Source: an uncultured Eubacteriales bacterium (GTDB lineage: Bacteria; Bacillota; Clostridia; Oscillospirales; Acutalibacteraceae). Taken from it: 64,000 bases of DNA. The notes beneath the pieces were generated by a model. It was not told the DNA's origin and ran no database searches. It worked only from the letters and a program-made list of their open reading frames with translations. The stretch is taken from positions 19,642-83,641 of the forward strand of contig ONBJ01000003.1 of assembly GCA_900316025.1 (NCBI GenBank), given 5' to 3'. This document shows, in pieces, positions 8,468-45,254 of this stretch. Numbering within the stretch: position 1 is the first letter of the stretch; each line of letters starts with the position of its first letter. A program made the position numbers and the translations under genes.

Positions 8468-8610
8468 GCTTGCGGATACGCTCGGGCGGCGATTGCAGAT
8501 CGCCGCAGATTTTATCTGCGGCGGTTCATTGATGATTTGAAAAATCATCAATGAACGTCAAAAGCATAGCTTTTGACATCTGCAATCGCCGCCCGAGCGT
8601 ATCCGCAAGC
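8468..8610. repeat. Four-way-junction (cloverleaf) element B1
   Basis: 33-bp perfect outer stem (8468-8500/8578-8610) enclosing three abutting perfect hairpins 8501-23, 8524-56, 8557-77. Confidence 0.95.
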
Positions 8611-8641
8611 TTATTTAATACAAAGAGGAGAGCGTAAGCGA

Positions 8642-9724
8642 ATGAAAACGGTAGATTTGGTTGTACCCTGCTACAATGAAGAGGACGGACTTTCTTTATT
8701 TGTAGAGGAAACAACAAAGGTAATAAATACGATAAAGGGATATAAATTCAGGTTCATACTTGTAAATGACGGAAGCAAGGACAATACTTACGGAGTAATG
8801 AAGGAGCTTGCAAAAAAATACGGGAATGTGCAGTACATTTCCTTTTCAAGAAATTTCGGAAAAGAATCAGCTATGTATGCAGGTTTCAAATATTCAAGTG
8901 CGGATTATGTGGTTGTTATGGACGCAGACCTTCAGCACCCGCCCAAAATGATAATTGATATGTGCAAGGCTATGGAGGAGGGATATGACTGCTGTGCGGC
9001 GAGAAGGACAAGCCGTGAGGGCGAATCGAAAATAAGGAGCTTTTTTTCGAGAACGTTCTACAGGATAAGCAACAGCATATCGGAAGTAAAAATGCCTTAC
9101 AATGCGGTTGACTACAGAATGATGTCACGACAGATGGTAGATGCGATAGTATCGCTTGGAGAAGTACAGAGATTTTCAAAGGGACTTTTCAGTTGGGTAG
9201 GCTTTGATACAAAATGGCTTCCCTATGAAAATATAGAGCGTACAATAGGAACTACTAAATGGAGTTTCTGGGGACTTTTCAAATATGCAATAGACGGCTT
9301 TGTATCGTTTACAGTATCACCGTTAAGACTGCTGTCGGGTATAGGTTTTATGTTTTCGGGAGTTGCATTTATCTATATAATCATAACACTTATAAAGACG
9401 CTTATATTCGGGATTGACGTTCCGGGTTATGTAACAACTCTTTGTGCTGTACTCCTGTTGGGCGGAGTGATAGAGCTTTCCATAGGTATTCTCGGCGAAT
9501 ATATAAGCAGGATTTTTCTTGAAAGCAAGAAGCGACCTATATTCATCGTCAAGGACAGCAACGTGAGCGATACGGCTGACAGCACAGATACAGCCGAAAA
9601 TGAAGAAACCGCTCCCGATGACGATAAGGAAAAAGAACAGGAAAGTTCAGAAAAATCAGTCGGTGATAAAAAAGAAGAAGCTGACAGTGAAAAGGTTGAG
9701 TACGATTTCAGTTATTTTGAATAA
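8642..9724 (+). CDS. GT2 family undecaprenyl-phosphate glycosyltransferase (GtrB-like)
   Basis: VPCYNEE, VNDGSKD, SRNFGKE, MDADLQHPP; two C-terminal TM helices; start moved to 8642 (GAGGAG RBS). Confidence 0.9.
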   Translation: MKTVDLVVPCYNEEDGLSLFVEETTKVINTIKGYKFRFILVNDGSKDNTYGVMKELAKKYGNVQYISFSRNFGKESAMYAGFKYSSADYVVVMDADLQHPPKMIIDMCKAMEEGYDCCAARRTSREGESKIRSFFSRTFYRISNSISEVKMPYNAVDYRMMSRQMVDAIVSLGEVQRFSKGLFSWVGFDTKWLPYENIERTIGTTKWSFWGLFKYAIDGFVSFTVSPLRLLSGIGFMFSGVAFIYIIITLIKTLIFGIDVPGYVTTLCAVLLLGGVIELSIGILGEYISRIFLESKKRPIFIVKDSNVSDTADSTDTAENEETAPDDDKEKEQESSEKSVGDKKEEADSEKVEYDFSYFE

Positions 9725-9742
9725 AGCAGAGAGGAAAAATAA

Positions 9743-10222
9743 ATGGGAGAGTTTTTGAAAAATTTTTTTGATATAAAATTCTGGAAATTCATACTGGTTG
9801 GAGTTCTGAATACCATTGTAGGAACAGGACTTCAGTTTGTTCTGTACAATTTTACGCCTTTGCAGGGAATGTCGCAGAAGGGAACATTTATTGCTTCGGC
9901 TGTATCATATTTTCTTGCCAGCATTATGAGCTATTTCCTGAACAAATATTTCACGTTCAAAAATAATGAAAAAGGCTGGAAACCTGTTGTAAGATTTGCG
10001 GTAAATATAGCTGTATGTTATGCTATAGCTTATGGTCTGGCAATTCCTCTTACTTCGTATATATGCACGTCAAACAATATAACAATGTTTGGCTGGAAGG
10101 TTGATGTTTTCGCACAGAATGCCTCTATGGTGATAGGAAGCTGTCTTTTTGTAGCTCTTAACTATATAGGTCAGAGATTTTTCGCATTCAAAAGTACGGA
10201 GGAAGCTGTATCGGAACAGTGA
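9743..10222 (+). CDS. GtrA family flippase-like membrane protein
   Basis: KFILVGVLNT...SYFLNKYFTF...VRF pattern, about 4 TM; next to GtrB-like gene. Confidence 0.85.
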   Translation: MGEFLKNFFDIKFWKFILVGVLNTIVGTGLQFVLYNFTPLQGMSQKGTFIASAVSYFLASIMSYFLNKYFTFKNNEKGWKPVVRFAVNIAVCYAIAYGLAIPLTSYICTSNNITMFGWKVDVFAQNASMVIGSCLFVALNYIGQRFFAFKSTEEAVSEQ

Positions 10223-10259
10223 TTTCGTTTTAATCGTCAGTCTGACTGTAAACATTATG

Positions 10260-10299
10260 TCCGTTCGTCTGTGTCGTTTTCACTACACAGACGAACGGA
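10260..10299 (+). terminator. Intrinsic terminator after gtrA
   Basis: 15-bp stem TCCGTTCGTCTGTGT/ACACAGACGAACGGA then T-rich run. Confidence 0.7.
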
Positions 10300-10407
10300 T
10301 ATTTTTGTGTTTGAAGCGTAATTTTGTGTTATATATGGCGATGTTATGGTTTCAAAGAGAGCAATCAAAATAAAAAAATTAATATTGAGGTAAATTTTAT
10401 GTTTTAT

Positions 10408-10436
10408 TTGACAATGATGTACAGAAAAGGTATAAT
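10408..10436 (+). promoter_or_regulatory. Consensus SigA promoter of the LRR gene
   Basis: TTGACA-17-TATAAT. Confidence 0.75.
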
Positions 10437-10475
10437 ATAGCTGTAGGTCATAGAGATATACAGGAGGAATTTAAA

Positions 10476-11741: not shown

Positions 11742-11891
11742 AACTTAAAGACCGTACAATACATAGGGATTGGCGGTCTTTTTTATTTGCCCGACATATT
11801 TCAATGAAGTGTAAAAATTAAGTAGTGCCGAAATAAAATAATGTATAAAGTAACAAAAAAATGACAAATTGTAAAAAATATGATTTTGCTG

Positions 11892-11921: not shown

Positions 11922-11976
11922 CTATATCAGCGGCGACAAAAGGTAAGCTTAGATTTTTAAATTCAGGGGGAATTTT

Positions 11977-14040
11977 GTGAAAGCATCAAAAAGAATTCCT
12001 GCAGTTTTTCTTGCAGCATTGTTAATAGCAGGAGCGGCAACTCCGGTATCGGCACAGACGGTTTCGGAAAATGCCACGGAAAAAAGCAGTGTATCACAGG
12101 TATCCGCTTTGAAGGATACTGAAAATAAAGTTTCAAAATCAGAAAATTCAGCAGCTTCTGTTTCTGAAAAGGCAACAGAGAGTATAACTGAAGGTGTTGA
12201 TTTGAGCAAAGACGATTCAGAAAAATCTGCCCCCGAACTTTCAAAGGGAATAAAGAATCAAACCATATCTTCAATATCAATTTCAAGTAAGAGTGTAGTT
12301 CTTGAAACCGCTCAGACAAAGCAGATGAGCGTTGAGATTACACCTTCAGATGTAAGACCTGACTGCATTGAATGGCAGAGTACGAATTCAGGTGTGGCAT
12401 CTGTGAGCAATACCGGAGTTGTTACTGCAAACGGAGCAGGTACATGTACCATAAAGGCGATTTCCATGGACGGAAGCAATAAGCTTTCATACTGTTCCGT
12501 AACGGTAACACAGAGGGTTGCCAATTTTGAAATTTCAGGCAGACCTGAAACTATCAAGGTCGGAGAAAAGGCAACTCTTTCCGCTATAGTCGCTCCTTCG
12601 TTCGCAACAAATAAGGTTCTTAAATGGAGCAGCAACAATCCTGATATTGCATCTGTTTCAACAAGAGGAATCGTTACGGCATTGAAAGAAGGTATTGCAA
12701 CAATTACAGCAGTTACTTCTGACGGAAGCAATATTTCAAAAAGCTTTAATCTTAAAGTAGAGCCTTCAACGGAAAAACCTATAAAACAGATTACTTCCAT
12801 AACGCTCAGTTCTATAAGAAAAGTAATAAATCAGGGTGATGATTTTCTCCTCAGCGGTTTAATTCAGCCTGCCGATGCGACAAATACATCACTTACATAT
12901 GTAAGCAGCAATACAAATGTTGCAGATGTTGATTCAAACGGAAGAGTTTACGGAAAATCAAAGGGTACATGTGTTATATATGTATCTTCAAATGACGGCA
13001 GCAAGATAAGAACAGGCTGTGTTGTTACGGTAGATAACAATGTTTTCAGCGTATCTATGGAAAAATCACTTAACTGTCTGAGAGGAAGAAGTGTACCGCT
13101 AAATCCCGTTATAACTCCCGCAGATGCAGATACTTCAAATGTAACATACAGAAGCAGCGACCTCAGTATTGCAACAGTTGACGGAAACGGTGTTATCAGA
13201 GGTATTTCAAACGGCAGTTGTACTATAAACTGTGTGTCAAGGGACGATCTTAAAATTTACGGAAGATGTCATGTTACGGTAACAGAGCCTGTAAGCCTTA
13301 TAAATATTCATGGTGACGGAATTGTTGCACCTAATGAAAGCATAGATCTTACAGCGACAGTATTTCCTTTAACAGCGACAAACAAGAATTTTATCTGGAG
13401 AAGCAGCGATGAAAGCGTTGCAAGAGTAGACCAGAAAGGCAGAGTTTACGGAGTTAAATCCGGAACGGTAATAATAAAATGTATCGCAATAGACGGTTCG
13501 GGTGTGTTCGGAACAAAGGAAATAACTGTTCGTGGAGGTGCAGCTTATGAGCTTGTTTCAGTTGCAAAGCAGCAAGCAGGAAACGGCCCTTCTGAGTACC
13601 GCAAATGGTTCTATGGCTATGATGCTGCCGATATACCTTGGTGTGCGATATTTGTTTCATGGTGTTTCAAACAGATTGACGGCATAAATCTCTACGCTGC
13701 AAAGACAGCAGGTGCAGGCTCTATAGCAAGAGAGAGTATAGCAATGGGACTTGAAGGTGACTGGTTCGAGAGTGAGTTTTCGGATTTAACTACCAAGCCG
13801 CAGGTCGGAGATGTAATAGAGTTTGTATGGAACTATAAGGGAAGATATTCCTCACAGGACAGATACTACAGTGACCATGTAGGTATAGTGTACGATGTTG
13901 ATGATGATTTTGTCTACACTGTAGAGGGTAATGCAGGCGGTGATGATAATGATACAAGTACCGTAAAGCTCAGATCATACAGCAGAAAGAGCGGTGCAAT
14001 AAACGGCTACTACAGACCCAGATGGGCTGACAATGTATAA
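11977..14040 (+). CDS. Secreted protein with five Big_2 Ig-like domains and a C-terminal CHAP peptidoglycan hydrolase domain
   Basis: Signal peptide; five W/Y-x-S-S-N...VA-x-V...G-x-V repeats; PWCAIFVSW, DHVGIV, TVEGN. Confidence 0.85.
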   Translation: MKASKRIPAVFLAALLIAGAATPVSAQTVSENATEKSSVSQVSALKDTENKVSKSENSAASVSEKATESITEGVDLSKDDSEKSAPELSKGIKNQTISSISISSKSVVLETAQTKQMSVEITPSDVRPDCIEWQSTNSGVASVSNTGVVTANGAGTCTIKAISMDGSNKLSYCSVTVTQRVANFEISGRPETIKVGEKATLSAIVAPSFATNKVLKWSSNNPDIASVSTRGIVTALKEGIATITAVTSDGSNISKSFNLKVEPSTEKPIKQITSITLSSIRKVINQGDDFLLSGLIQPADATNTSLTYVSSNTNVADVDSNGRVYGKSKGTCVIYVSSNDGSKIRTGCVVTVDNNVFSVSMEKSLNCLRGRSVPLNPVITPADADTSNVTYRSSDLSIATVDGNGVIRGISNGSCTINCVSRDDLKIYGRCHVTVTEPVSLINIHGDGIVAPNESIDLTATVFPLTATNKNFIWRSSDESVARVDQKGRVYGVKSGTVIIKCIAIDGSGVFGTKEITVRGGAAYELVSVAKQQAGNGPSEYRKWFYGYDAADIPWCAIFVSWCFKQIDGINLYAAKTAGAGSIARESIAMGLEGDWFESEFSDLTTKPQVGDVIEFVWNYKGRYSSQDRYYSDHVGIVYDVDDDFVYTVEGNAGGDDNDTSTVKLRSYSRKSGAINGYYRPRWADNV

Positions 14041-14065: not shown

Positions 14066-14179
14066 GTGGGCGGAGATTGCAGACCACCGTCGGACTTGTC
14101 CGACGGTGCTTTTTTTGGCGATTAATCGCCAAAAAGTTGTCACAAGCCTTGCTTGTGACTGTCTGCAATCTCCGCCCAC
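14066..14179. repeat. Four-way-junction element B2
   Basis: 19-bp outer stem GTGGGCGGAGATTGCAGAC/GTCTGCAATCTCCGCCCAC; hairpins 14085-108, 14112-135, 14139-159. Confidence 0.9.
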
Positions 14180-14224
14180 TTTGTTTGTACTGAAAAACCA
14201 AAAATAAAATTACCAAAAAAGGTA

Positions 14225-14859: not shown

Positions 14860-16453
14860 CGGAAGTCCCAAGGGAAAGAGAAGCAATACATATAAACTCG
14901 CACAGGCATTCAAGGAAGGAATTTCTGAAAAGACGGCTATAGAGTACGAGGAAATATGCGTAAAAGATAAGGAAATAAAGACCTGCTCGGGCTGTTTTTC
15001 GTGCTGGAACAAGACACCAGGAAAATGTGTTGTAAATGATGATATGGAAGAAATTCTTGAAAAGATTTTATGGGCGGATACGGTTATATGGTCATTCGGA
15101 CTTTATTATTTCAATGTACCGGGAAAGCTTAAAATGCTGATAGACAGACAGCTTCCGCTCTCTATGCCTTTTATGGTAAAGGACAGTGAAAGCGGAGGAC
15201 ACAGCTCAAGATATGATATGTCGGGCAAGAGAAACGTTGTAATATCGACCTGCGGTTTTTATACGGCAAAGGGTAATTACGATTCTGTAGATGATATGTT
15301 CAGTCATTTTTGCGGAAAAGACGGCTACGATAAAATATACTGCGGTCAGGGAGAGCTTTTCAGAGTTCCCGAACTTAAAGGAAGAACGGAAGAATATCTT
15401 AACGATGTAAGGTGTGCTGGAAGAGAGTTTGCACAGGGAAAAATATCCGCAGAAACTTCAAAAAGACTTGAAGCCTTGCTGTTCCCGAAAGAAGTATTTG
15501 AAAGTATGGCAGACGCAAGCTGGGGAATAGAGGAAAAGACAGGTATAAAAAGTGACGAAGCCTTTACTTTTACAAAGCAGATGGCGGCACTGTATAACAA
15601 AAATTCATACAGCGGCAAGGATATAGTACTGGAAATGTTCTACACGGATGAGGAAAAAAGGTATCAGATAATTCTTGGAAAAGACGGAAGTAATGTTATA
15701 AAGGAAAATTTCCGTGAATACACAACAAAGATAGAAACTCCATTATCGGTATGGAAAGATATTGCACAGGGTAAAATATCGGGAACTCAGGCATTGATGG
15801 AAAAAAAGTACCGTGTTTCGGGAGATTTTGACATTATGATTAACTGGGAGAAATACTTCGGATACGAAAGCGGCAGTTCAGACGAAAATCGTACACAAAT
15901 TTCGCATAAAGGCGAAAAGAAAAGCAATATGCTTGTTATGCTGTTTCCCTGGATAGTGTTCTGGGTTGCGGTATCTATAGAAAGCTATGTGGGAGCATTA
16001 ATATCGGTTGCAGCGTGTGGAATCCTCAATGTTATTTTTTTCAGAAACAGAAAAACAGTATATGACGTTATATCATATGCGGCGGTAATAATTTTGTCGG
16101 TACTTGTTTTATGGTTGGGAAATGTTTCCGTTATACTGCCTGTATCATATCTTTTGTTCGGTCTTATGTGGAGCGTATCCTGTATTACTAAAATTCCGCT
16201 TACTGCACACTACTCTATGAATGATTACGGCGAAGACAAAGCATTTGAAAATCCGCTTTTTGTAAGAACAAATCTTATACTTACTCTTGCATGGGGAATA
16301 CTGTATATAGCTACAAGTATATGGACATTCTTTTTAATGTCATCACCCATAGCACCGTACATATCTCTGATAAACAATATTTGTCCTATTGTAATGGGTG
16401 TGTTTACAGTATGGTTTCAGCGTTGGTATCCTGCACATTATGCCTCTAAATGA
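14840..16453 (+). CDS. Fusion: iron-sulfur flavoprotein/flavodoxin-like domain + SCP2 lipid-binding domain + multi-TM C-terminus
   Basis: INGSPKG..SNT FMN loop, CSGCFSCWNKTPGKC motif; SCP2-like WKDIAQGKISGTQALMEKKYRVSGD; about 5-6 hydrophobic helices at the end. Confidence 0.75.
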   Translation: MKILLINGSPKGKRSNTYKLAQAFKEGISEKTAIEYEEICVKDKEIKTCSGCFSCWNKTPGKCVVNDDMEEILEKILWADTVIWSFGLYYFNVPGKLKMLIDRQLPLSMPFMVKDSESGGHSSRYDMSGKRNVVISTCGFYTAKGNYDSVDDMFSHFCGKDGYDKIYCGQGELFRVPELKGRTEEYLNDVRCAGREFAQGKISAETSKRLEALLFPKEVFESMADASWGIEEKTGIKSDEAFTFTKQMAALYNKNSYSGKDIVLEMFYTDEEKRYQIILGKDGSNVIKENFREYTTKIETPLSVWKDIAQGKISGTQALMEKKYRVSGDFDIMINWEKYFGYESGSSDENRTQISHKGEKKSNMLVMLFPWIVFWVAVSIESYVGALISVAACGILNVIFFRNRKTVYDVISYAAVIILSVLVLWLGNVSVILPVSYLLFGLMWSVSCITKIPLTAHYSMNDYGEDKAFENPLFVRTNLILTLAWGILYIATSIWTFFLMSSPIAPYISLINNICPIVMGVFTVWFQRWYPAHYASK

Positions 16454-16458
16454 AGAGT

Positions 16459-16545
16459 TTAAGGGTTTCACCCTTAAAAATCCTGACCAAAGGCTCCGCC
16501 TTTGGAAACCGCAAGCCTTTGAAAAGGCTTGACCTAAACTTTATG
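16459..16545 (-). repeat. Repeat family A, copy A2
   Basis: Reverse complement of A1 with one substitution; starts 6 nt after the upstream stop codon. Confidence 0.95.
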
Positions 16546-16613
16546 TTGTCTGATTATTGTTTTTGTGAGTGTACTTATAAATGTTTTTATAGATACACTC
16601 TGTTTTTTGCCTT

Positions 16614-17426: not shown

Positions 17427-17444
17427 TAATTACTACAGAAAAAT

Positions 17445-17530
17445 CATAAAGTTTAGGTCAAGCCTTTTCAAAGGCTTGCGGTTTCCAAAGGCGGAGCCTT
17501 TGGTGGGATTTTCAAGGGCAAAGCCCTTGA
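17445..17530 (+). repeat. Repeat family A, copy A3
   Basis: Identical to A1 over first ~60 bp; third hairpin is the variant TCAAGGGC-AAA-GCCCTTGA. Confidence 0.95.
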
Positions 17531-17535
17531 ACTCA

Positions 17536-17579
17536 AAACCCCATCACTGCTGAAAATAAATTCAGCAGTGATGGGGTTT
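17536..17579. terminator. 19-bp stem between convergent M23 and recX genes
   Basis: AAACCCCATCACTGCTGAA-AATAAA-TTCAGCAGTGATGGGGTTT. Confidence 0.7.
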
Positions 17580-17591
17580 GCTTGAGAAAAT

Positions 17592-18200
17592 TTATAAAAA
17601 ACTGTTTTCTTCCTGAATAGCGTTTTTAATATCGCTCCAGCTCCAGCCAAGTCTTTGCAGGGCTGCTATAGCTCTTTTCTTTACCTTTTCGTCATGTGCA
17701 TAGGTCGGATATTTCTTTGCAAGAACCTGCTGTATCTCGGATACAGGGTCAAATTCAAGATCTTCCTTGATAATCTCTATTATTTCAGGCGAAATTCCCT
17801 TTTCACGAAGCCTGAACTCTATTCCTCTGAGCGACATATGTTTTTTTCGTAAAAGCTCATCTGCATATTTACGTGCATATTCCTCATCGTTGACAAGTCC
17901 TGATTCCTGCATTTTTTCGGCGATTTCCTCTGCCGTTTCAGCGGAATAAGTCCTGCTGAGTTTTTCTTTAAGTTCTTTTTTAGAGTGGTCACGGTATGTG
18001 ATAAGGTTAAGAGCTTTTTCGTTTGCACGCTGTTTTTCAGACTGCTGTATCAGACTATGAAGTTCTTCGTCCGAAATTTCCACACCAGCTTTTATATGGT
18101 TCTTAATCAGCGTCATATTATCAAGAGTTACAGCATATTCACCGTCTATATAAACGGCACTCATAGACCTTTTCCAAGGCTCAACCGAACTTATGAGCAT
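17592..18200 (-). CDS. recX: Regulatory protein RecX
   Basis: ALNLITYRDHSKKEL, GLVNDEEYA, LQRLGWS; directly after recA. Confidence 0.9.
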   Translation of the reverse strand: MLISSVEPWKRSMSAVYIDGEYAVTLDNMTLIKNHIKAGVEISDEELHSLIQQSEKQRANEKALNLITYRDHSKKELKEKLSRTYSAETAEEIAEKMQESGLVNDEEYARKYADELLRKKHMSLRGIEFRLREKGISPEIIEIIKEDLEFDPVSEIQQVLAKKYPTYAHDEKVKKRAIAALQRLGWSWSDIKNAIQEENSFL

Positions 18201-22007: not shown

Positions 22008-22226
22008 ATGCAAGCTTCCTTATTATGTTATTTATGGGTATGAAGTCATATAATTTACAGGTAATTCTGAAAATTATATTAAAAAAATACCTCTGCTGAG
22101 ATATTATAACATACTTATAATTGACTTTGAAGCTGCATTGTGCTAAAATTGTTACATTAAATGCAGGATTGTGTTTTTTAGCTTGTGCGTTAAAATATGA
22201 AAATCCTGCTTTGTGCGGACAATGGG

Positions 22227-22323
22227 GCGATTGCAGCCCGTTTCGGACATCTGTCCGAAACGAACTTTCAAGCCTAGGCTTGAAAGTTGACAAAAGCGTA
22301 AAGCTTTTGTCGGCTGCAATCGC
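22227..22323. repeat. Four-way-junction element B3
   Basis: GCGATTGCAGCC/GGCTGCAATCGC outer stem; abutting hairpins 22239-62, 22263-88, 22289-311. Confidence 0.9.
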
Positions 22324-22403
22324 AGCCTGAGCGTAGCAGAGGGTTGATTTTGTAGTTAAGACATATTTATGTTAAATCTGATTATGTATGAGGAGCTTTC
22401 AAT

Positions 22404-23615
22404 ATGAGAAGTATCCCTTTTTCTCCGCCTGATATAACCGAAAGTGAGATAGAAGCAGTAGCGGAAACACTTCGTTCGGGCTGGATAACGACAGGGCCAA
22501 AAACAAAGGAATTTGAGGAAAAAGCAGCGGAGTTTTTCGGAACACCGAAAGCAGTTGCACTCGGCTCATGCACATCATCGCTGGAGCTTACACTGCGTAT
22601 ACTGGGGATAGGAGAGGGAGATGAAGTTATAGTTCCTGCCTATACGTATACTGCAAGTGCTGCGTGTATAGCACACGTTGGAGCTAAAATAGTTATGGTA
22701 GATACATCGCCCGATTCGTTTCTTATAGACCCTGACAGAGTAGCTGACGCTATAACAGAAAAGACAAAAGCCGTTATCCCTGTTGATATAGCAGGAAAAA
22801 TGTGCGACTATGAGCGTATTTTTGAGGCGATTGAAAATAAGAAACATCTGTTCAGACCTGAAAATGACATTCAGAGAGTTTTTAACCGAGTGGTTGTAGT
22901 AGCCGATTCCGCACACGGTTTCGGTTCGAGCAGACACGGAGTTATGAGCGGCGGTGTAGCGGATTTTACAGCATTTTCACTTCATGCGGTAAAGACTATA
23001 ACCTCAGCCGAGGGCGGAATAGCCACATGGAAGCATCATGAAGGACTTGATGATGAAAAGCTGTACAATAAATATATGGTTTACTCTCTGCACGGACAGA
23101 CAAAGGACGCACTGCATAAAAATCTTGCAGGTTCATGGGAATACGATATTGTTATACCGGGGTATAAATGCAATATGACCGATATTCAGGCAGCAATAGC
23201 ACTTGTACAGCTTAAACGTTTCAGGGAAATTCAGGGCAGACGGCGTGAAATTATAGAAATGTACGATAAGGCTATGGACGAAATCGGTATAGGTTATCTG
23301 CACCATGTAAATGATGATTTTGTCACAAGCTGTCATATATATCTCACAAGGGTTCAGAATATAGGACACAGGGAGCGTAACGAGATTATAGACCGTATGG
23401 CAGAACTGGGGGTTTCCTGTAACGTACACTTCAAGCCGCTTCCTATGATGACGGCATACAAGAATATGGGATTTGATATAAAGGACTATCCAAATGCCTA
23501 CGCTCACTATAAGAATGAGATAACGCTTCCGCTTCATACAAAGCTCAGCAACGATGACGTTAAATATGTCATTGAATGCTATAAAAAAGTGCTTTCGGAT
23601 ATGAAGCTGATATAA
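22404..23615 (+). CDS. DegT/DnrJ/EryC1/StrS family sugar aminotransferase
   Basis: SGWITTGP, VIVPAYTYTAS, DSAHG, FSLHAVKTITSAEGG (PLP Lys), GYKCNMTDIQAA. Confidence 0.9.
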   Translation: MRSIPFSPPDITESEIEAVAETLRSGWITTGPKTKEFEEKAAEFFGTPKAVALGSCTSSLELTLRILGIGEGDEVIVPAYTYTASAACIAHVGAKIVMVDTSPDSFLIDPDRVADAITEKTKAVIPVDIAGKMCDYERIFEAIENKKHLFRPENDIQRVFNRVVVVADSAHGFGSSRHGVMSGGVADFTAFSLHAVKTITSAEGGIATWKHHEGLDDEKLYNKYMVYSLHGQTKDALHKNLAGSWEYDIVIPGYKCNMTDIQAAIALVQLKRFREIQGRRREIIEMYDKAMDEIGIGYLHHVNDDFVTSCHIYLTRVQNIGHRERNEIIDRMAELGVSCNVHFKPLPMMTAYKNMGFDIKDYPNAYAHYKNEITLPLHTKLSNDDVKYVIECYKKVLSDMKLI

Positions 23616-28918: not shown

Positions 28919-30172
28919 ATGGAATATTTTGAAAATGAGAAGAAACAACAGAGAGTACTGCTGGTATGTGTGGATACAGGAGAATATGATGCACAGTCAT
29001 CGCTTGACGAGCTTTGGGAGCTGAGCGAAAGTGCAGGAGCAGAGCCTGTCGCAACGCTGACGCAGAAAAAAGACAGACCTGATACCGCAACCTATGTAGG
29101 AAGCGGCAGACTTGAAGAAATAAAGAACTTTTGCGAAAATCAGGATATAGATGTTCTGATTTTTGACTGTGAGCTTACACCGACACAGATAAGGAACATC
29201 GAGCAGGCAACGGGAATACGCACAATAGACCGAACAATGCTTATACTGGATATATTTGCACTAAGGGCAAGGAGTAAGGAAGGTAAGCTTCAGGTAGAGC
29301 TTGCTCAGCTTAACTATATGCTGCCAAGACTTACCGGTAAGGGAGCGGAGATGTCACGTCTTGGCGGAGGAATAGGTACGAGAGGTCCCGGAGAAACAAA
29401 GCTTGAAACAGACAGAAGGCATATACGCCGCCGTATGGAAACGCTCAAAGAACAGCTCAAAGATGTAAAGCAGCACAGGGATATGCTGAAAAGCAGAAGA
29501 AAAAAGGACGGAGTAATAACTGTTGCTATAGTAGGATATACGAACGCAGGAAAATCAACACTTATGAACTGTCTTACTGATGCAGGAGTACTTGCCGAGG
29601 ATAAGCTTTTTGCCACGCTTGACCCGACATCAAGGGCGTTGAAGCTTCCGAACGGTGTAAGTGTTATGCTTACGGATACGGTAGGACTTGTAAGACGGCT
29701 TCCGCACCATCTTGTAGAAGCATTCAAATCCACACTTGAAGAAGCGGCTGAGGCTGATATAATACTTAATGTATGCGATGCGTCCTCTGAGGAAGCATAT
29801 CTTCACCTTGATGTTACAAGGGAGCTTTTCGAGAGCTTAGGCTGTACATCTTCGCCTATAATACCCGTACTCAACAAATGGGACAGAGTAAATGAAAAAA
29901 GCGGAGTAATTCCTATGGTGAGCGGAGCGGTAAGAATTAGTGCCATAAACGGAACAGGTATAGATAAACTTCTGGAAAGAATAGAGGAAAATCTTCCTGT
30001 AGAGATAAGGCGTGTAAAACTGCTCATACCGTTTGACAAGGGAAGAATTGTGGCAGAGGTGCGTGAAAAAGCTACTCTGCTTGAAGAAAAGTACAGTGAA
30101 AACGGAATAGTCATAACAGCACTTTTAAAGCCTGATATGTACGGCAGGCTGAAAGAATATGTCGTTGACTGA
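28919..30172 (+). CDS. hflX: GTPase HflX
   Basis: GIGTRGPGETKLE, VGYTNAGKS, LFATLDPT, DTVG, NKWD. Confidence 0.97.
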   Translation: MEYFENEKKQQRVLLVCVDTGEYDAQSSLDELWELSESAGAEPVATLTQKKDRPDTATYVGSGRLEEIKNFCENQDIDVLIFDCELTPTQIRNIEQATGIRTIDRTMLILDIFALRARSKEGKLQVELAQLNYMLPRLTGKGAEMSRLGGGIGTRGPGETKLETDRRHIRRRMETLKEQLKDVKQHRDMLKSRRKKDGVITVAIVGYTNAGKSTLMNCLTDAGVLAEDKLFATLDPTSRALKLPNGVSVMLTDTVGLVRRLPHHLVEAFKSTLEEAAEADIILNVCDASSEEAYLHLDVTRELFESLGCTSSPIIPVLNKWDRVNEKSGVIPMVSGAVRISAINGTGIDKLLERIEENLPVEIRRVKLLIPFDKGRIVAEVREKATLLEEKYSENGIVITALLKPDMYGRLKEYVVD

Positions 30173-30429: not shown

Positions 30430-30456
30430 AAGCAGGGCTTGCGTCAACGCTCAGGA

Positions 30457-30556
30457 GGCGATTGCAGACCGTCAAAAGCAAAGCTTTTGACGAAAATTCA
30501 AGGGAAAATCCCTTGAATTTTTAACGGCTGCTTTGCAGCCGTAGTCTGCAATCGCC
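30457..30556. repeat. Four-way-junction element B4
   Basis: GGCGATTGCAGAC/GTCTGCAATCGCC; hairpins 30470-92, 30493-521, 30524-42; left flank resembles the B1 left arm. Confidence 0.9.
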
Positions 30557-30608
30557 GCAGTACAGCAGTAAGCCGTGCTGCGAAAAAGCAGAAAAGGTGG
30601 AGAAATTT

Positions 30609-36307: not shown

Positions 36308-38512
36308 ATGAACGGTAAGCCAAATGAGGATAAAACTTCTGATAAAGTATATTCTTTATCAGATAATGAAAGTAAATCTGCGGCTGACGGCAGCACCGAA
36401 AACAGCGGTATAAATCCCGACAATATCTATGAAACCACTCAGGATTTAGACAAAAAAAGAGCTTCGGGAGGAAATATGGATTCCGTGCAGTCTGACAGAA
36501 AAAGCTTTGACTTTAATGACGGGTACGATAAAGCCGACAGCACCGCTGCAAACGAAAACTCAGATACCAATGAAGCCTCTTATAATTTCCAGAATTCTGA
36601 AAACGTTGGTTATGAAGAATACTATAATCAGAATAACGGCGGTTATAATGCTTACGGAAATAATGCCTATCAGTACGATAACAATAATGCTAACGGCTAT
36701 AAAAGCTATGATTACCGAAACAGACAGGGCAGCGGATATTACGGAGGCAATCAGTACGGACACGGAGCATACGGAGGACAGCCGCCGTACAGCAATTCTC
36801 AGTATTACGGACAGCCGAGATATAACAATAATTATCCGCCCAATGCAGGATTTTATACTCCTATTAAAAAAATATACGATAAAATAGACAGACGCTTTTC
36901 GGTTTATGCACTTTTTGCAGGTTTTATTTTCGTATGGTTTATAGCCGTGGAAAATTTCAATTTCGGCATAGGAGCAAGCGTTTATTTTGTCGGTACTCTG
37001 TTCTTGTCATATTTTTATGTTCTGAAGAAAAAGCTTAAAATAGACTGGATACATAATATCGCATTTGTGTTTCTGATAATATTAAGCATTCCTTTCAGCA
37101 TATACAGCAACAGACTTGTACTTGCTATGGATTTTTCGGTACTGTTTTTCGGAACTTCCTACTGGGTGTACTCCAGCGGAGGAAAGGACAGAAAACGCTT
37201 TTCAAACACATTATCTGATTTTCTCGGCGGTACTTTGGGCTATCCTTTTATGAACTACGGTTCGATGTTTCCTGCGATGTTCAGCAAGGAAAAGGGCAGA
37301 AAGCACGGAAATGCCAAATGGATTATACTCGGTCTGCTTATAGCCGTTCCGATAGTTTCGGTTGTATCGGCACTTCTGCTTGAAAGCGATGAAATGTTCA
37401 AGGTAATGTTTTCGTTTATCTTTGATAATTTCATATCAAAGCTTCTGAAATACATATTATATGCCATTGTAGGTATTCCGCTGGCTATGGCGGTTTTCAG
37501 TTGCTGGTATACCAAATATGACGAAGAACAAAGGTATAAAATAAACCGAAACGGTTTTGGTTATCCTACAGGAGTAAACCTTAGTAAGAAAAAATCAGGT
37601 GTAGCACCTGCTGTTCTGATGTATGCTATAGCTATTCCGCTCTGCGTTGTATATCTTTTATATCTTATATCTCAGATTGCATATTTCATATCATTCCTTG
37701 CGGAAAATCTTCTGCCAAAGGATTTTACAATAGTAGATTATGCAAGAAACGGCTTTTTTGAGCTTTGCATTGTTTCTGTAATAAACATAATAATCATACT
37801 GCTGCTTTTTGCACTCACGATAAGAACGGAAGAAAACAGTCTGCCTGCGGGAATAAGAGTTATAACAGTGATTATGTCGCTGTTTACAATGATATTCATA
37901 AGTACCGCACTTTACAAGATGTTTATGTACATACAGCAGTACGGTTATACGGCTATGCGTATAAATACGAGCATATTTATGTTTTTCCTGATGATAGTTT
38001 TCGTTCTGACGATAACAAAGCAGTTTATACCTCAGTTCAGGCTTTTTCCTGCGGTGATTGTGTGTATGCTTGTTTTCCTTGCAGGGTATAATCTGGCTGA
38101 CACGGACGCATTTATTGCAAGAGAAAATATAAGACTGTTTGAGGAAAAACAGATAGGCTGGATGGGAAGCAGTCTTGTGGAGAAGCTTGATGATTCAGCA
38201 TATGAGTATATTATTCCGTTTGCCGATAAAGAGAACAACGGGCTTACCCGTGACGAACAGGAAAGTCTGGAAAGAGCAATAATGGAAAAATATTATTGGA
38301 ACAAGGACAAATATGATGATATGGCTGAGCATTTTCCGTCATTCAATGTAAGCAGATTCAAGGTTTACAGAATGCTGGAGGATTACCGTCAGAACCATAA
38401 GGACATATACGACAGATACTACGGTTATGATTATAAATCGTATTTATATGATGAAGATGATGAAGATGATGAGGCAGAATATGCCTACAGTCATATATAC
38501 GATGAGGTCTGA
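36308..38512 (+). CDS. DUF4153/DUF4173-type polytopic membrane protein with N/Y/G-rich N-terminus
   Basis: IILGLLIAVPI..ALLLESD..F, YARNGFFELC, YIQQYGYTAMRI patterns; start moved to ATG 36308. Confidence 0.75.
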   Translation: MNGKPNEDKTSDKVYSLSDNESKSAADGSTENSGINPDNIYETTQDLDKKRASGGNMDSVQSDRKSFDFNDGYDKADSTAANENSDTNEASYNFQNSENVGYEEYYNQNNGGYNAYGNNAYQYDNNNANGYKSYDYRNRQGSGYYGGNQYGHGAYGGQPPYSNSQYYGQPRYNNNYPPNAGFYTPIKKIYDKIDRRFSVYALFAGFIFVWFIAVENFNFGIGASVYFVGTLFLSYFYVLKKKLKIDWIHNIAFVFLIILSIPFSIYSNRLVLAMDFSVLFFGTSYWVYSSGGKDRKRFSNTLSDFLGGTLGYPFMNYGSMFPAMFSKEKGRKHGNAKWIILGLLIAVPIVSVVSALLLESDEMFKVMFSFIFDNFISKLLKYILYAIVGIPLAMAVFSCWYTKYDEEQRYKINRNGFGYPTGVNLSKKKSGVAPAVLMYAIAIPLCVVYLLYLISQIAYFISFLAENLLPKDFTIVDYARNGFFELCIVSVINIIIILLLFALTIRTEENSLPAGIRVITVIMSLFTMIFISTALYKMFMYIQQYGYTAMRINTSIFMFFLMIVFVLTITKQFIPQFRLFPAVIVCMLVFLAGYNLADTDAFIARENIRLFEEKQIGWMGSSLVEKLDDSAYEYIIPFADKENNGLTRDEQESLERAIMEKYYWNKDKYDDMAEHFPSFNVSRFKVYRMLEDYRQNHKDIYDRYYGYDYKSYLYDEDDEDDEAEYAYSHIYDEV

Positions 38513-38730
38513 TGACCCCAGATAAGGCGGTTTTAATTTCACGGCAGACATTATGTCTGCCGTGTTCTGAAATCGCCTGAATGTTGATATACGGCAAAAT
38601 AAAGTTAAAATATGTATTGCCGACTTTGAATTAATATGTTAATATATTATCAGGAGTTTAAAGATTTGCCCTGAATTTTATGTCTGAAATTTTAAGTTTG
38701 TATATAGCTGTCCGAAAAGGGTGATAAAAT

Positions 38731-41919: not shown

Positions 41920-42711
41920 ATGGCAAAAATATATCCGTTGTTCAGCGGAAGCAAGGGAAACAGCTATTATATAACATCATCGGGAAGAGGCATACTTATA
42001 GATGCCGGAAGAAGTGCCAAGCAGATAGAAAAGGCTCTTTCAGACAACAGCATAGACCCCAGAGGTATAGAGGGCATATTTATTACGCACGAGCATTCCG
42101 ACCATATAAAGGGAGTAAGAGTACTTGCATCAAAGTACGGAATAAATGTATACGCAACAGAGGGAACACTTCGCAGTATGGAAACGTCAGGGGATTTATC
42201 TCCCGAAAAATTCAGCAGCTATATAATAAACAGCGGAGCTGAGGCTGCAGGTATGAGAATAAAGCCTTTCCGTATATCGCATGACTGTGCAGAGGGTGTC
42301 GGATATACTGTTGAAACCTCTGACGGAAGAAAAATAGCTGTTGCCACCGATACGGGATTTATCACTCAGGAGATAAAAAGTGCCATAAAGGGAAGTGATG
42401 TTATAGTAATAGAGTCAAATCACGATGTAAATATGCTCCTGAACGGCGGTTATCCATACATACTTAAAAGAAGAATTTTATCCAATAAGGGACATCTGTC
42501 AAACGAAAGCTGTTCGGAATTTTTACCCGAACTTGTCAGAAACGGATCAACACGCTTTTTGCTGGCACATCTCAGCAAAGAAAACAATATGCCGCAGATA
42601 GCACTGCAATCGGCAAGGTGTGTACTTTCGGAACACCATATGAAAGAAAATTCGGACTACACCATTGATACGGCAAAGGAAACAACTGACGGAAGCTGTA
42701 TAATTTTTTAA
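41920..42711 (+). CDS. Metallo-beta-lactamase fold hydrolase (YycJ/WalJ-like)
   Basis: SGSKGN, THEHSDH, SHD, TDTG, ESNHD, GHLSN; next to rlmH. Confidence 0.88.
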   Translation: MAKIYPLFSGSKGNSYYITSSGRGILIDAGRSAKQIEKALSDNSIDPRGIEGIFITHEHSDHIKGVRVLASKYGINVYATEGTLRSMETSGDLSPEKFSSYIINSGAEAAGMRIKPFRISHDCAEGVGYTVETSDGRKIAVATDTGFITQEIKSAIKGSDVIVIESNHDVNMLLNGGYPYILKRRILSNKGHLSNESCSEFLPELVRNGSTRFLLAHLSKENNMPQIALQSARCVLSEHHMKENSDYTIDTAKETTDGSCIIF

Positions 42712-42729
42712 GGAGATATACAAACTGAA

Positions 42730-43212
42730 ATGCTTTCTGTAAATATAATATGTGTCGGAAAATTAAAGGAAAAATACTGGACACAGGCAGTCAATGAGTA
42801 TGAAAAAAGATTAAGGCTATTCTGCAAATTTAAAATAACCGAGGTCGATGAAGAGAAAATCTCAGATAATCCGAATGAAAGTCAGATTAATGCTGTTCTG
42901 GAAAAGGAAGGAAAGCGTATTCTGAAGAATATCGGAAAAAACAGTCAGGTTATAGCTCTGTGTATAGAAGGAAGTCAGGTATCTTCTGAGGGAGTTGCGG
43001 AAATATTCGGAAAAACGGCATTAAACGGCATAAGCAGTATAGATTTTATAATCGGCGGCTCATGGGGACTGTCAGACGAGGTAAAATGCAACTGTGATAT
43101 AAAGCTGTCAATGTCAAAAATGACTTTTCCTCACCAGCTTGCGAGGGTAATGCTTTGTGAGCAGATATACAGAGCCTTTCAGATAACAAGCGGAGGAAAA
43201 TATCACAAGTAA
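42730..43212 (+). CDS. rlmH: 23S rRNA pseudouridine-1915 N3-methyltransferase
   Basis: VGKLKE, FIIGGSWG, MTFPHQLARVMLCEQIYRA..YHK. Confidence 0.96.
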   Translation: MLSVNIICVGKLKEKYWTQAVNEYEKRLRLFCKFKITEVDEEKISDNPNESQINAVLEKEGKRILKNIGKNSQVIALCIEGSQVSSEGVAEIFGKTALNGISSIDFIIGGSWGLSDEVKCNCDIKLSMSKMTFPHQLARVMLCEQIYRAFQITSGGKYHK

Positions 43213-43215
43213 TAA

Positions 43216-43345
43216 GTCTGTGCTGACGGTGGTGCGATTGCCTTGTCAAAAGCTTTGCTTTTGACAAGCTTCAAGGTTACACCTTGAAGAGCCGTTTCAG
43301 AATTAAACTGAAACGGCTGCAATCGCACCGAAAATAAGCACAGAC
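43216..43345. repeat. Four-way-junction element B5
   Basis: GGTGCGATTGC/GCAATCGCACC plus outer GTCTGTGCT/AGCACAGAC; abutting hairpins 43242-68, 43269-89, 43290-318. Confidence 0.9.
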
Positions 43346-43392
43346 CTTTGAAAAAATCAATTTTAAAAGAAAAAGGGGCGGGAAAAATAAAA

Positions 43393-45147
43393 ATGGCTTT
43401 GGACGGCGGATATTTAAGATATATATGTAATGAGATAAATGAAAAAGCTGCAAACAGCAGGGTAGAGAAGGTATATCAGCCTAATAAAGATGAGATAGTA
43501 CTTGGGTTCAGAGGTCTTAAAGGAGCATATAAGCTTCTTGTTTCGTCAAGGGCAAACAGTCCCAGAATAAACTTTACGGAATATGCTCCCGAAAACCCTA
43601 AAGTTCCGCCTATGCTGTGTATGCTTTTCAGAAAGAAGCTTTGCGGAAGTAAGCTGATACAGGCACGTCAGCCTGCACTTGAAAGGATAATTTTTCTTGA
43701 TTTTGATGCAACGAATGAGCTTGGCGATCATATAAAGCTTACACTTGCGGCTGAGATAATGGGCAAGTACAGCAACGTTATTTTCATAAATGAAGAAGGC
43801 GTTGTAATAGACGCACTCAAAAGAGTAGATATGTCAATGTCATCACAAAGGCAGGTTCTTCCGGGTTTAAAATACAGCCTTCCGCCTGCACAGAATAAGA
43901 TAAATCTTCTTGACGGAGAAACAGAGGAAACAACAGAAAAAACTTTAAAAGCACTGGAAAGCATAACGGTTGATACAAAGCTGAGCAAAGCATTGTTAAA
44001 TACGATACAGGGAATTTCACCCATAGCGTGCAGGGAGCTTGAATATCTTACAGGAAAGGGAAGAGAACTTACAACGGAAAATCTGAAAATTTCCGAAATC
44101 AGAAAAAGACTTGTCTTTTTTGTCGGAAGAATGGCAGATAATCTTAAAAATCTGAGTTATACCCCCCATATGGCGGTTATAAACGGAAAGCCTGCGGATT
44201 TTTTCTTCGGAGATATAACCCAGTACGGACAGCTTGCGGAGATTAAGCGTTATGAAAGCTTTAGCAAGCTTGTTGATGATTTTTATATCGGCAGAGATAC
44301 GATAGAAAGAATGAAATCGAAATCTCAGGATTTGCACCGTATGCTTTCAAATACAACAGAGAGGCTTTCAAGGAAGATAAATACACAGACTCTTGAGCTT
44401 GAAAGGTGTACGGACAGAGAACCTCTTAGGATAAAAGGTGATTTAATTCAGGCAAATATATACAGGATAGAAAAGGGAATGTCCGAGATTACAGTAGAAA
44501 ATTATTATGACGGCAACAGACCTTTTACTATAGAGCTTGACCCGTCGCTTACGGCAACACAGAATTCCCAGAAGTATTATAAGAGCTATCGTAAGGCAAA
44601 GACGGCGGAGCAGGTTCTTAAAGTTCAGCTTGAGAAAGCAAAAGCTGAGCTTGATTATATAGAAGCTGTATCGGAAAGTCTGAGCAGAGCCGAAACCGAA
44701 GGCGAGCTTAACGAAATACGCCGTGAGCTTGCCGAACAAGGATATATAAGAACACGTCAGGGTAAGCAGAAAAAAACAGCAGCACTGCCTGTTTTAAAGT
44801 TCAGGCTTTCTACGGGTTTTGAGCTTTTGGTCGGAAGAAACAATACACAGAATGATAAGCTCACCTTGAAGACAGCAGCCAAAAACGATATATGGCTTCA
44901 TACGAAAAATATACACGGGGCACATGCGATAATAGTTACAAACGGTTTGCAGCCTGATGAGCAGACGATAAAAGAAGCAGCTCAGATAGCTGCATATCAC
45001 AGCAAGGCAAGAGAAAGCTCACAGGTGCCTGTTGACTATACGCTTGTGAAGAATGTAAGCAAACCATCAGGAGCAAAGCCGGGTATGGTAATATACGTCA
45101 AGAACAGAACAATATATGTAACACCTGAGCTTCCGCAGAAAGTTTAG
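43393..45147 (+). CDS. rqcH: Ribosome quality control factor Rqc2/RqcH (NFACT)
   Basis: MALDG, KVYQP, EIMGKYSN, NSQKYYKSY.K.K, GRNNTQND, WLHTKNIHGAH, VDYT; start moved to 43393. Confidence 0.92.
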   Translation: MALDGGYLRYICNEINEKAANSRVEKVYQPNKDEIVLGFRGLKGAYKLLVSSRANSPRINFTEYAPENPKVPPMLCMLFRKKLCGSKLIQARQPALERIIFLDFDATNELGDHIKLTLAAEIMGKYSNVIFINEEGVVIDALKRVDMSMSSQRQVLPGLKYSLPPAQNKINLLDGETEETTEKTLKALESITVDTKLSKALLNTIQGISPIACRELEYLTGKGRELTTENLKISEIRKRLVFFVGRMADNLKNLSYTPHMAVINGKPADFFFGDITQYGQLAEIKRYESFSKLVDDFYIGRDTIERMKSKSQDLHRMLSNTTERLSRKINTQTLELERCTDREPLRIKGDLIQANIYRIEKGMSEITVENYYDGNRPFTIELDPSLTATQNSQKYYKSYRKAKTAEQVLKVQLEKAKAELDYIEAVSESLSRAETEGELNEIRRELAEQGYIRTRQGKQKKTAALPVLKFRLSTGFELLVGRNNTQNDKLTLKTAAKNDIWLHTKNIHGAHAIIVTNGLQPDEQTIKEAAQIAAYHSKARESSQVPVDYTLVKNVSKPSGAKPGMVIYVKNRTIYVTPELPQKV

Positions 45148-45154
45148 CTGAGCA

Positions 45155-45254
45155 GTGCGATTGCAGCACTCAAAATGCAGGCATTTTGAGCGTTACAAGT
45201 GCTACGCACTTGTAACGGACTGCAAACAAAGTTTGCAGTCCGCTGCAATCGCAC
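45155..45254. repeat. Four-way-junction element B6
   Basis: GTGCGATTGCAGC/GCTGCAATCGCAC; hairpins 45169-90, 45191-217, 45218-40. Confidence 0.9.

Follow-up and report, generated by a model that had tools for sequence, protein, structure and literature searches.

The intergenic elements described here as family B are, in our reading, a REP/BOX-like repeat in a new cloverleaf form. They come from a 64,000 nt window of an uncultured Eubacteriales bacterium (assembly GCA_900316025.1, contig ONBJ01000003.1, positions 19,642 to 83,641, forward strand), where an initial annotation had listed six of them, B1 to B6; all six were recovered at their given positions as members of a repeat of about 187 copies. 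Our tentative interpretation, to which we give somewhat less than even weight, is that these are ancient, lineage-restricted and now sedentary extragenic palindromic repeats of the REP/BOX kind with a cloverleaf unit, in which the DNA fold is most likely the selected state. Any role for them is a candidate one and unproven.

Although extragenic palindromic repeats were recognised forty years ago, what selects them is still disputed. Family B provides a clean natural experiment, with about 187 positionally fixed copies, four perfect helices of differing sequence in each, a sister species and near-identical strains. The data separate mutational maintenance, seen as loop flips, from selection, seen as stems evolving 5–6 times more slowly than neutral sites, and they allow the question of a DNA or an RNA fold to be asked. 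If the DNA reading is true, this would be a rare instance of selection for a non-B DNA structure present all along a bacterial chromosome; should the RNA reading be true, REP-type 3'UTR control would extend to anaerobic Firmicutes with a new architecture. On either reading, the invariant core predicts a findable binding protein.

Copy number and fold

A genome-wide search for further copies, as proposed in the initial annotation, combined a regular expression with folding and returned 165 copies that have exactly three branches. With variants of the closing helix included, for example GATTTCAG/CTGAAATC, the total rose to about 187, every one of them intergenic, at one per 11 kb, close to the one per 10 kb estimated earlier. 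Within the window, GATTGCAG occurs 14 times against 2.8 expected, a count reached by none of 100 shuffles. Subfamilies with near-identical arms are present. The spacing of copies is weakly regular (CV 0.81 versus 0.92 ± 0.07; 14 spacings under 2 kb versus 25.5 expected), a signal so weak that no further reading was built on it. The sites in the window are as follows.

B1, 8467..8612, + strand: arm order X-Y-Z; closing helix extended to 33 bp, with the outer 'tail' motif on both sides; within the leader of the gene starting at 8643, with a TATAAT box about 12 nt upstream
B2, 14066..14180, + strand: arm order X-Y-Z; core variant GAGATTGCAG; separated by 26 nt from the preceding stop at 14040; among the few copies with a T-rich run behind
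B3, 22227..22342, + strand: arm order X-Y-Z; core 22227–22323 plus a one-sided tail AGCCTGAGCGTAGCAG; in a 5' leader whose promoter, upstream of the element, is also conserved in congeners without the element
B4, 30436..30557, − strand: X-Y-Z on the − strand; core 30458–30555, tail motif on the Z-arm side at 30436–30459; between the gene ending at 30172 and the gene starting at 30597
B5, 43216..43345, − strand: X-Y-Z on the − strand; core 43234–43326; imperfect outer helix, GTCTGTGCT paired with AGCACAGAC; starts 4 nt after the stop at 43212
B6, 45155..45254, − strand: X-Y-Z on the − strand; between the gene ending at 45147 and a response-regulator gene starting at 45315
Decayed relic, 38525..38577, strand not assigned: a single arm remains (hairpin CACGGCAGAC), along with the 3' half of the closing helix, which is of GAAATCGC type

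The relic at 38525–38577 lies directly behind the stop at 38512 and was absent from the earlier list of six copies.

The unit comprises about 95 bases, with elements reaching 95–145 nt, and consists of a closing helix and three abutting perfect hairpins that together form a four-way junction. The closing helix is 10–12 bp long with the nearly invariant core GCGATTGCAG/CTGCAATCGC, and the hairpins are 9–11 bp each. Folding confirmed the closing-stem core and the three hairpins in all six window copies (z = −10 to −21 relative to dinucleotide shuffles), as well as the junctions without unpaired bases proposed for B1, B3 and B5. The same fold is obtained from the + and the − strand of each of the six, and DNA energy parameters agree with RNA ones. 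The shared arm (GTCAAAAGC and variants) comes last in B1–B3 and first in B4–B6, giving the two orientations first described.

Across the genome, 101 of the 165 three-branch copies have no junction nucleotides at all, 460 of 478 regular arms have loops of 3–4 nt, and G-T pairs account for 23 of 6509 base pairs (0.35%). Elements carry three arms or, rarely, one; two or four were never seen. In some copies GTAG is found inside the optional one-sided tail motif, and nowhere else in the unit. The core differs by 2.4% between copies and the arms by 38–63%. The description of these arms as freely varying needs qualification: their sequences do differ while remaining paired, but a loose consensus exists for each arm, and in the Z arm three A residues are nearly invariant. 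In a covariation test, computed on an alignment with a hand-set structure, double changes occurred in 26 of 42 pairs, and none of 500 shuffles reached the observed value.

Distribution across species and mobility

Family B was found in only two species of rumen Clostridia, G000 and G018 (RUG213), which share about 87% DNA identity and carry the family at the same loci; the G018 ortholog of B1 is 96% identical. Nothing like it was detected in 17 congeners, 150 genomes of the order or all of Rfam. Pattern matches in other phyla, in metagenomes and in one 'viral' contig turned out to be chance single matches without the three-hairpin fold, or to stem from the window's own species.

At 38 of 42 loci the two species carry orthologous elements. 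The other four, seemingly absent in G000, are deletion or rearrangement remnants; decay by deletion has affected about 10% of loci in G000 after the two species diverged, and no clean empty site exists among the 42. At the B3 locus, congeners with about 75% identity lack the element, and the sequences are too diverged for boundaries to be defined. None of 16 strain-level indels in about 330 kb compared involves family B. Other small MITE-like elements are polymorphic between strains in the same comparison, which is thus able to detect mobility. Neither a target-site duplication nor a conserved insertion motif was found in the flanks, which show only further complementarity and the one-sided tail motif, the latter being part of the element. 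No gene is bracketed by inverted cores, and orphan core motifs are chance genic matches or element remnants.

Expansion of the family predates the separation of the two rumen Clostridia species, and the copies have kept their positions ever since. It is old, and no present mobility was detected. The suggestion of an element mobilised as single-stranded DNA accordingly finds no support for the present day: the searches returned no Y1 transposase, empty site, target duplication or insertion polymorphism, and the four loci that were candidates for empty alleles all hold remnants.

Selection and template switching

Between the two species, arms diverge by 5.2%, loops by 28.9% and fourfold sites by 28.3% (Fisher p = 4e-142). 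The helices thus evolve at a rate 5–6 times below that of loops or fourfold sites (5.5-fold for the stem rate), which places pairing under purifying selection. This selection acts at host level, and the core sequence is under stronger selection still. Among 57 changed arm pairs, 51 are double Watson-Crick swaps and 5 are single changes. All 38 orthologous pairs keep a near-identical folding energy.

The loops record a second process. Between strains that are 99.5% identical (flanks differ by 0.45%), 9 exact reverse-complement loop flips were counted in 56 elements, and between species there are 7 exact and 16 near-exact ones. Such exact flips indicate replication template switching, which flips loops across hairpins. 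A special flip rate for family B was rejected, the rate (8/151) equalling that of other intergenic hairpins (5/97); flips are therefore not specific to the family. Template switching can perfect stems and produce double substitutions (PMC8794818; PMC8604942), and the minimal loops and perfect stems may in part be its mutational product and not a selected feature. The initial annotation was right that the structure is selected, as the slow stem rate attests, but it had posed selection and template-switch perfection as alternatives, a false contrast here, where both operate.

DNA fold or transcript fold

It is possible, although we lean against it, that the same sedentary family works at the transcript level, its RNA fold acting in cis in either orientation as an exonuclease block at the upstream 3' end or the leader 5' end, perhaps with read-through attenuation, as has been reported of E. 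coli REP. Placement speaks for this. All copies are intergenic and most are flanked by co-oriented genes; of 142 tandem cases, 113 have the element's base closer to the upstream stop and 29 closer to the next start (p = 6.5e-13), with median distances of 36 nt after the stop and 81.5 nt before the start. Divergent intergenic regions are depleted (11/180 versus a 13% background; chi-square p = 0.016), and B1 and B3 lie in 5' leaders downstream of recognisable promoters. The earlier description of copies behind stop codons or in leaders is thereby borne out. RNA folding energies of −64 to −120 kcal/mol and the documented dual stabiliser and terminator role of REP elements (bioRxiv 10.64898/2026.03.23.713779) also fit a transcript-level role. 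The strands themselves, however, look alike. Orientation relative to transcription is 60:58. In a small sample of 43 appositions, G-T occurs 24 times on the sense strand and 19 times on the antisense strand (equivalent to A-C on the sense strand), so that G-U is as rare as A-C and a 3:1 sense excess is rejected (p = 0.005). Compensatory changes show no transition excess (transitions to transversions 24:30 for arm changes versus 1194:1657 at fourfold sites). Loops are A-rich or T-rich in a ratio of 194:176, and sense-strand loops have neither a stable-tetraloop preference nor polarity. The strand-specific conservation expected of a structured cis-regulatory RNA was thus not seen in orientation, G-T pairs or loop polarity, and a nearly invariant perfect 10-bp helix would be an unusual target for sequence-specific RNA recognition. 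As had been noted for most copies, the U-tract is missing: a T-tract on either side accompanies only 4 of 187 copies, against the form of an intrinsic terminator, in which a U-tract follows a G+C-rich hairpin, and terminator-like sites are equally frequent with and without an element (7% each). What stands of the earlier 'RNA element' reading is the selected structure; its RNA half finds no support in strand tests that are symmetric throughout.

The equal rarity of G-T and A-C, the missing transition excess, the random orientation and loop polarity and the minimal unpaired nucleotides lead us to infer that the DNA fold is most likely the selected one, which we consider slightly more likely than selection on the transcript fold. 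Unpaired nucleotides are at the steric minimum, with 3–4 nt loops and no junction linker. The selected state would be either the fold of transiently single-stranded DNA or, on each strand, an extrudable cloverleaf of cruciform type. A putative sequence-specific protein might read this fold through the invariant core helix, in which case effects on the co-transcribed mRNA would represent an additional role or a by-product. Template switching would, by its known mechanism, copy one arm strand onto the other, and such copying would explain why double substitutions arise in one step and why G-T pairs are almost absent. A more specific proposal, which we regard as unlikely, is that some 190 protein-read DNA cloverleaves, each forming a linker-free junction per strand under negative supercoiling or as a single-stranded intermediate of replication and bound at the core by a putative lineage-specific factor, provide a topological or architectural mark every 11 kb or so between transcription units. 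Against the DNA-fold reading, no reader protein for the core was found, and the placement that follows gene direction, with B1 and B3 in leaders, fits a transcript-level role at least as well. Evidence for the DNA fold in vivo is limited to the rare replication events behind the loop flips.

The remaining explanations fare worse. A burst of miniature transposable elements long past, its hairpins kept perfect by template switching alone and with no host-level selection, would explain the present immobility, the flips shared at the same rate by all hairpins of the genome, the decayed loci and the existence of one-arm derivatives and relics. Copying from arm to arm, if unbiased, does not reduce the substitution rate, though, and yet stems differ by 5.2% where adjacent loops and fourfold sites differ by 28–29%; together with the preserved folding energies and a core almost invariant beside such divergent arms, this makes a functionless relic improbable. 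Continuing movement as ssDNA, driven in trans by an HUH/Y1 enzyme (of REP-RAYT or IS200/IS605 type) or by some other transposase recognising the terminal inverted core, is very improbable. The terminal inverted repeats of 10–33 nt, a fold of the kind such enzymes read, the lack of target duplications typical of those families and the GTAG in some tail motifs would all suit it, but Y1_Tnp (PF01797; RAYT/TnpA) is absent from a genome rated 100% complete while control genomes scored positive, genes between two copies look housekeeping-like with none resembling a transposase (judged from the first 60 residues), and neither strains nor species show presence/absence polymorphism in an assay able to detect mobility. 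Scarcely credible, finally, is the idea that the copies are structured RNA genes in their own right, be they small RNAs, ribozymes or riboswitch-like sensors: the strong conserved structure with covariation is what such genes would show, but not 187 copies with differing arms, randomly oriented to their neighbours, lacking promoter-terminator pairs of their own, with loops that evolve neutrally and invert, no conserved unpaired nucleotides from which a catalytic or ligand pocket could be built, and no match in Rfam.

Comparison with known elements

None of the six copies matched any family of Rfam 15, RF01699 included, at gathering score or at E<=5–10. The best sub-threshold scores on B1 were 22 bits for the bacterial folP (gathering score 99) and 35.8 bits for the plant microRNA family MIR841 (gathering score 200). 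RF01699, Clostridiales-1, was likewise described as a motif of gut Clostridia and gut metagenomes, and had been named in the initial annotation as a possible match; with no match by cmscan at those thresholds, that lead found no support.

REP/BIME elements of Enterobacteria and Pseudomonas resemble family B as abundant extragenic palindromes with a conserved core, lying behind gene ends or in operons and seldom between divergent genes. RNA-level roles (stabiliser, attenuator) and DNA-level ones (gyrase, IHF binding) have been proposed for them, and the density of one per 11 kb found here is comparable in magnitude. Each REP unit is one imperfect hairpin of 20–40 nt, tagged by GTAG or CGTC (PMC3733652). 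REP elements are linked to a RAYT gene, whereas family B is a 95–145 nt cloverleaf with four perfect helices, has no RAYT in the genome and is fixed in position across species. We rejected its classification as a RAYT-associated REP, given the absent Y1 gene and a unit that is not a single 20–40 nt imperfect palindrome. Pneumococcal BOX elements, also from Firmicutes, are intergenic, number about 100–130 copies per ~2 Mb, and have terminal modules that pair and internal modules that form hairpins; they are not known to have a dedicated transposase. Their internal boxB modules vary in number and have conserved sequences. Compared by architecture only, family B differs in its three arms, rarely one, whose variable sequences stay paired.

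Family B shares with MITEs (Correia of Neisseria, RUP of pneumococcus) its short, non-coding nature and terminal inverted repeats, its ends being nearly invariant over 10–12 nt and inverted over up to 33 nt in B1. MITEs amplify in bursts, and family B for its part has the subfamilies with near-identical arms. It lacks their target-site duplication, insertion polymorphism and parent insertion sequence with the same ends, and its flanks are complementary, not direct repeats. Like family B, the attC sites of integrons lie directly behind ORFs, have conserved inverse core sites that close a helix and a variable central part that keeps the fold, and attC is read as folded ssDNA. They are, however, single imperfect hairpins with RYYYAAC/GTTRRRY cores and extrahelical bases, arrayed in one orientation next to intI, whereas family B has the core GCGATTGCAG, perfect helices and copies dispersed in both orientations among housekeeping genes.

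In template-switch hairpins (Monttinen and Loytynoja 2022), compensatory changes alter several bases in one step, arms become homogenised and spacers are inverted, and all three occur in family B between strains and species. Those studies concerned rRNA genes and eukaryotic inverted repeats (PMC8794818; PMC8604942); family B differs from them in being a bacterial repeat family of 187 copies, in which the process runs alongside measurable purifying selection.

Structure and size of family B

The initial annotation had described six intergenic elements as near-perfect four-way junctions, and these structures were present at all six sites, each with a closing helix and three hairpins:

8467-8612, B1
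from 14066, B2
from 22227, B3
from 30436, B4
from 43216, B5
from 45155, B6

Their minimum free energies ranged from -64 to -120 kcal/mol, with z-scores of -10 to -21 relative to dinucleotide shuffles. The opposite strands gave mirror-image folds of equal energy, and the structures were unchanged under DNA energy parameters. The junctions of B1, B3 and B5 do lack any unpaired nucleotide, as originally reported. The window contains 14 occurrences of GATTGCAG, where 2.8 are expected.

A search of the window's genome (G000; 2.08 Mb in 98 contigs, 40% G+C) for GATTGC...GCAATC, followed by folding, returned 165 copies whose fold has exactly three branches; 101 of these have a linker-free junction. 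A second search was blind to sequence and sought three abutting perfect hairpins within an enclosing helix; family B was the sole family recovered, and some of its closing helices proved to be altered on both sides at once (e.g., GATTTCAG/CTGAAATC). The family totals 187 copies in this genome, 171 of them three-armed and approximately five one-armed, and none has two or four arms. Arms are 9-11 bp long, 460 of 478 regular arms end in loops of 3-4 nt, and G-T pairs make up just 23 of 6509 base pairs. The arms follow loose consensus sequences, namely CACGGCAGC or CGTTTCGGAC for X, AAATTCAAGGC for Y and GTCAAAAGC for Z, and reversal of the element alters only arm order and loops. Around 57 copies carry the tail CCTGAGCG(A/T)AGCCGCAG on the Z side, while B1 has it on both sides, forming a 33-bp helix.

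Covariation was assessed in an alignment of 20 copies with a hand-set four-helix structure. Paired cells amounted to 95.3%, compared with 81.0% in shuffles, and shifting the structure by 1-3 columns reduced pairing to 31-44%. Both sides had changed in 26 of 42 pairs, a value reached by none of 500 shuffles. The closing-helix core differs by only 2.4% between copies and the arms by 38-63%, indicating a constraint on sequence in the core but on pairing alone in the arms. From sequence comparison, this contrast predicts a putative sequence-specific reader of the core.

Genomic context

All family B copies are intergenic. By the ORF calls made here, the flanking genes are tandem for 144 copies, convergent for 25 and divergent for 11, the last setting being scarcer than in the background (p = 0.016). 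Arm order is indifferent to gene direction (60 vs 58). Of 142 elements in tandem settings, 113 have their base nearer the upstream stop; the median distances are 36 nt past that stop and 81.5 nt ahead of the next start. A T-run flanks only 4 of 187 copies on either side, and terminator-like sites have the same frequency, 7%, in tandem intergenic regions with and without an element. Judged from their first 60 residues, genes between two family B copies look like housekeeping genes.

B1 starts approximately 12 nt past a TATAAT box, and B3 lies inside a leader, downstream of the following promoter:

22110-22150, B3-locus promoter ahead of the gene at 22404: TTGACT followed by an extended -10 (TGTGCTAAAAT)

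This promoter is kept in four congeners (~75% genome identity), whose leaders are short and hold no element; the leader containing B3 is ~230 nt longer.

Distribution

Among 40 relatives, family B was found in only one other congener species, the rumen isolate RUG213 (G018), where strict matches numbered 126, compared with 127 in G000; the remaining 17 congeners held none. Triple-hairpin clusters occur at 6.2 per 100 kb in G000 and at 10.7 in G018, and 385 kb sampled from four congeners had none. A covariance-model search gave no family B match in 150 genomes of the order, representing 97 genera. In a scan of representative genomes, the only family members among the matches listed were again in 'uncultured Clostridiales bacterium isolate RUG213'; the remaining matches listed were single chance matches without a three-hairpin fold. 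Genuine metagenome matches, among those listed, lay on contigs that share 98.5-99.9% identity with the window's genome, and the sole IMG/VR contig with family B among the matches listed was likewise near-identical to it. That 11.8-kb contig (L123, IMGVR_UViG_3300032007_004071) is filed as viral and holds two family B copies; over its full length it matches G000 chromosome contig C24 at 99.7% identity, and may represent a prophage region or a misclassification.

An Rfam search of family B copies returned no match, and the suggested link to the four-stem 'Clostridiales-1' motif of gut Clostridia is not supported. The only above-threshold Rfam matches in the window were a tRNA (49582-49663) and an S10-Clostridia ribosomal-protein leader (49845-49925).

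Stability of position and evolution of stems

Flanks of the elements in 345 kb of G018 were mapped onto G000. For 38 of the 42 elements with both flanks mapped, a syntenic element was present. There were no empty sites: of the other four loci, one retained the right half and tail, one the closing helix and a single arm, and one the left half at a rearrangement breakpoint, while the last was rearranged. Between strains (flank divergence 0.45%), 56 family B elements aligned end to end, and the family was involved in none of 16 indels of at least 15 bp over ~330 kb. These orthologous loci and the lack of polymorphism indicate that the expansion of family B predates the split of the two species, and that the family has been immobile since.

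Several other small elements were present in one strain and absent from the other. Three of these (G000:C79:6543-6689, G000:C82:42095-42189 and G000:C43:2469-2620; ~145, 93-116 and 150-285 bp, with counterparts in metagenome contigs L135, L195, L177 and L198) are polymorphic at 99.5% identity, showing that MITE-like mobility is ongoing in this species while family B is static. G000 also carries a 2.6-kb insertion (G000:C39:12911-15510) relative to a metagenome strain (L151:9475-9512).

Fourfold-degenerate sites differ by 28.3% between G000 and G018, and codon positions 1 and 2 by 3.6%. Three arms can be parsed in both species for 37 of the 38 orthologous elements, and in these the per-site differences were 5.2% in arm helices, 8.4% in closing helices and 28.9% in loops (stem vs fourfold rate, p = 4e-142). 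Transition:transversion ratios were equal (24:30 for arm changes; 1194:1657 at fourfold sites).

Template switching during replication at inverted repeats leaves a signature of spacer inversion and arm homogenisation (PMC8604942, PMC8794818). Of 72 loops that changed between species, 7 are exact reverse complements and 16 more are nearer the reverse complement. Between strains there were 9 exact loop flips (AAA/TTT, TCT/AGA, TAAT/ATTA, ATAA/TTAT, TTGA/TCAA), accounting for 26 of 35 differing positions, the rest being 9 point differences in 5183 nt. Other intergenic hairpins flipped at the same rate (5/97 vs 8/151), so template switching is general rather than peculiar to family B, which suggests a high general rate in this organism. 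Among perfect hairpins within genes, 1 of 46 was flipped between G000 and Ga0256407 contigs (flanks differing by 0.45%).

Template switching accounts for double substitutions made in one step, for the almost complete lack of G-T pairs and for a transition:transversion ratio like that of neutral sites. Unbiased arm copying does not, however, reduce the rate of change. That stems have changed 5.5-fold less than either the neighbouring loops or fourfold sites therefore shows purifying selection. Since positions are fixed and each copy's own arm sequences are kept in both species, this selection acts at the level of the host. X and Y arms differ between copies almost like random sequence, and between orthologs by 5%; either the burst is over ten times as old as the split between the species, or the arms already differed when the copies arose.

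The selected state

We tentatively favour a DNA fold as the state under selection. The family's design holds unpaired nucleotides at the steric minimum, which favours this reading because a fold within one strand has to compete against the full duplex, a matter of no relevance to RNA. The strand tests were also symmetric throughout, in orientation, G-T appositions, loop polarity (194:176) and compensatory changes, the last without any transition excess. G-T appositions numbered 24 on the sense and 19 on the antisense strand, each antisense G-T being a sense A-C, and the 3:1 G-U excess expected under RNA-level tolerance was rejected (p = 0.005). Selection on a fold of the transcript sits poorly with this symmetry but is only slightly less likely. 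Element placement tracks gene direction and two window copies lie inside leaders, both of which count against the DNA reading; so do the small mismatch counts and the chance that stem perfection is partly a mutational product.

That the elements are non-functional relics is improbable given the deficit of stem changes, and an independent RNA gene is the least credible reading. The initial annotation had raised an ssDNA-mobilised element. G000 encodes no Y1 transposase, and family B shows no target duplications at its flanks, no empty sites and no strain indels; the idea is not upheld for the present day, and a still-mobile element is very improbable.

Relation to known repeats

In kind, family B is a REP/BOX-like extragenic palindromic repeat, but it differs from canonical REPs in size and in lacking both a RAYT transposase and a short tagged hairpin. 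MITE status is not demonstrable, as target duplication, polymorphism and a parent element are all absent. Identity as an attC site was considered and rejected. What is new is the four-way junction that has no linker and exactly three arms, the invariant core alongside arms that vary in sequence yet are always paired, the long stability of position, and the direct view of template switching together with selection.

The window also contains a second repeat, family A (16447-16551 and 17435-17538), with three separate hairpins, no closing helix and copies 90-98% alike; congeners G003, G008 and G012 carry it too, in contrast to family B. A sub-threshold Rfam match to psRNA14 (17534-17615; 36.5 bits, gathering score 60) adjoins the second of these copies, overlapping its last few bases.
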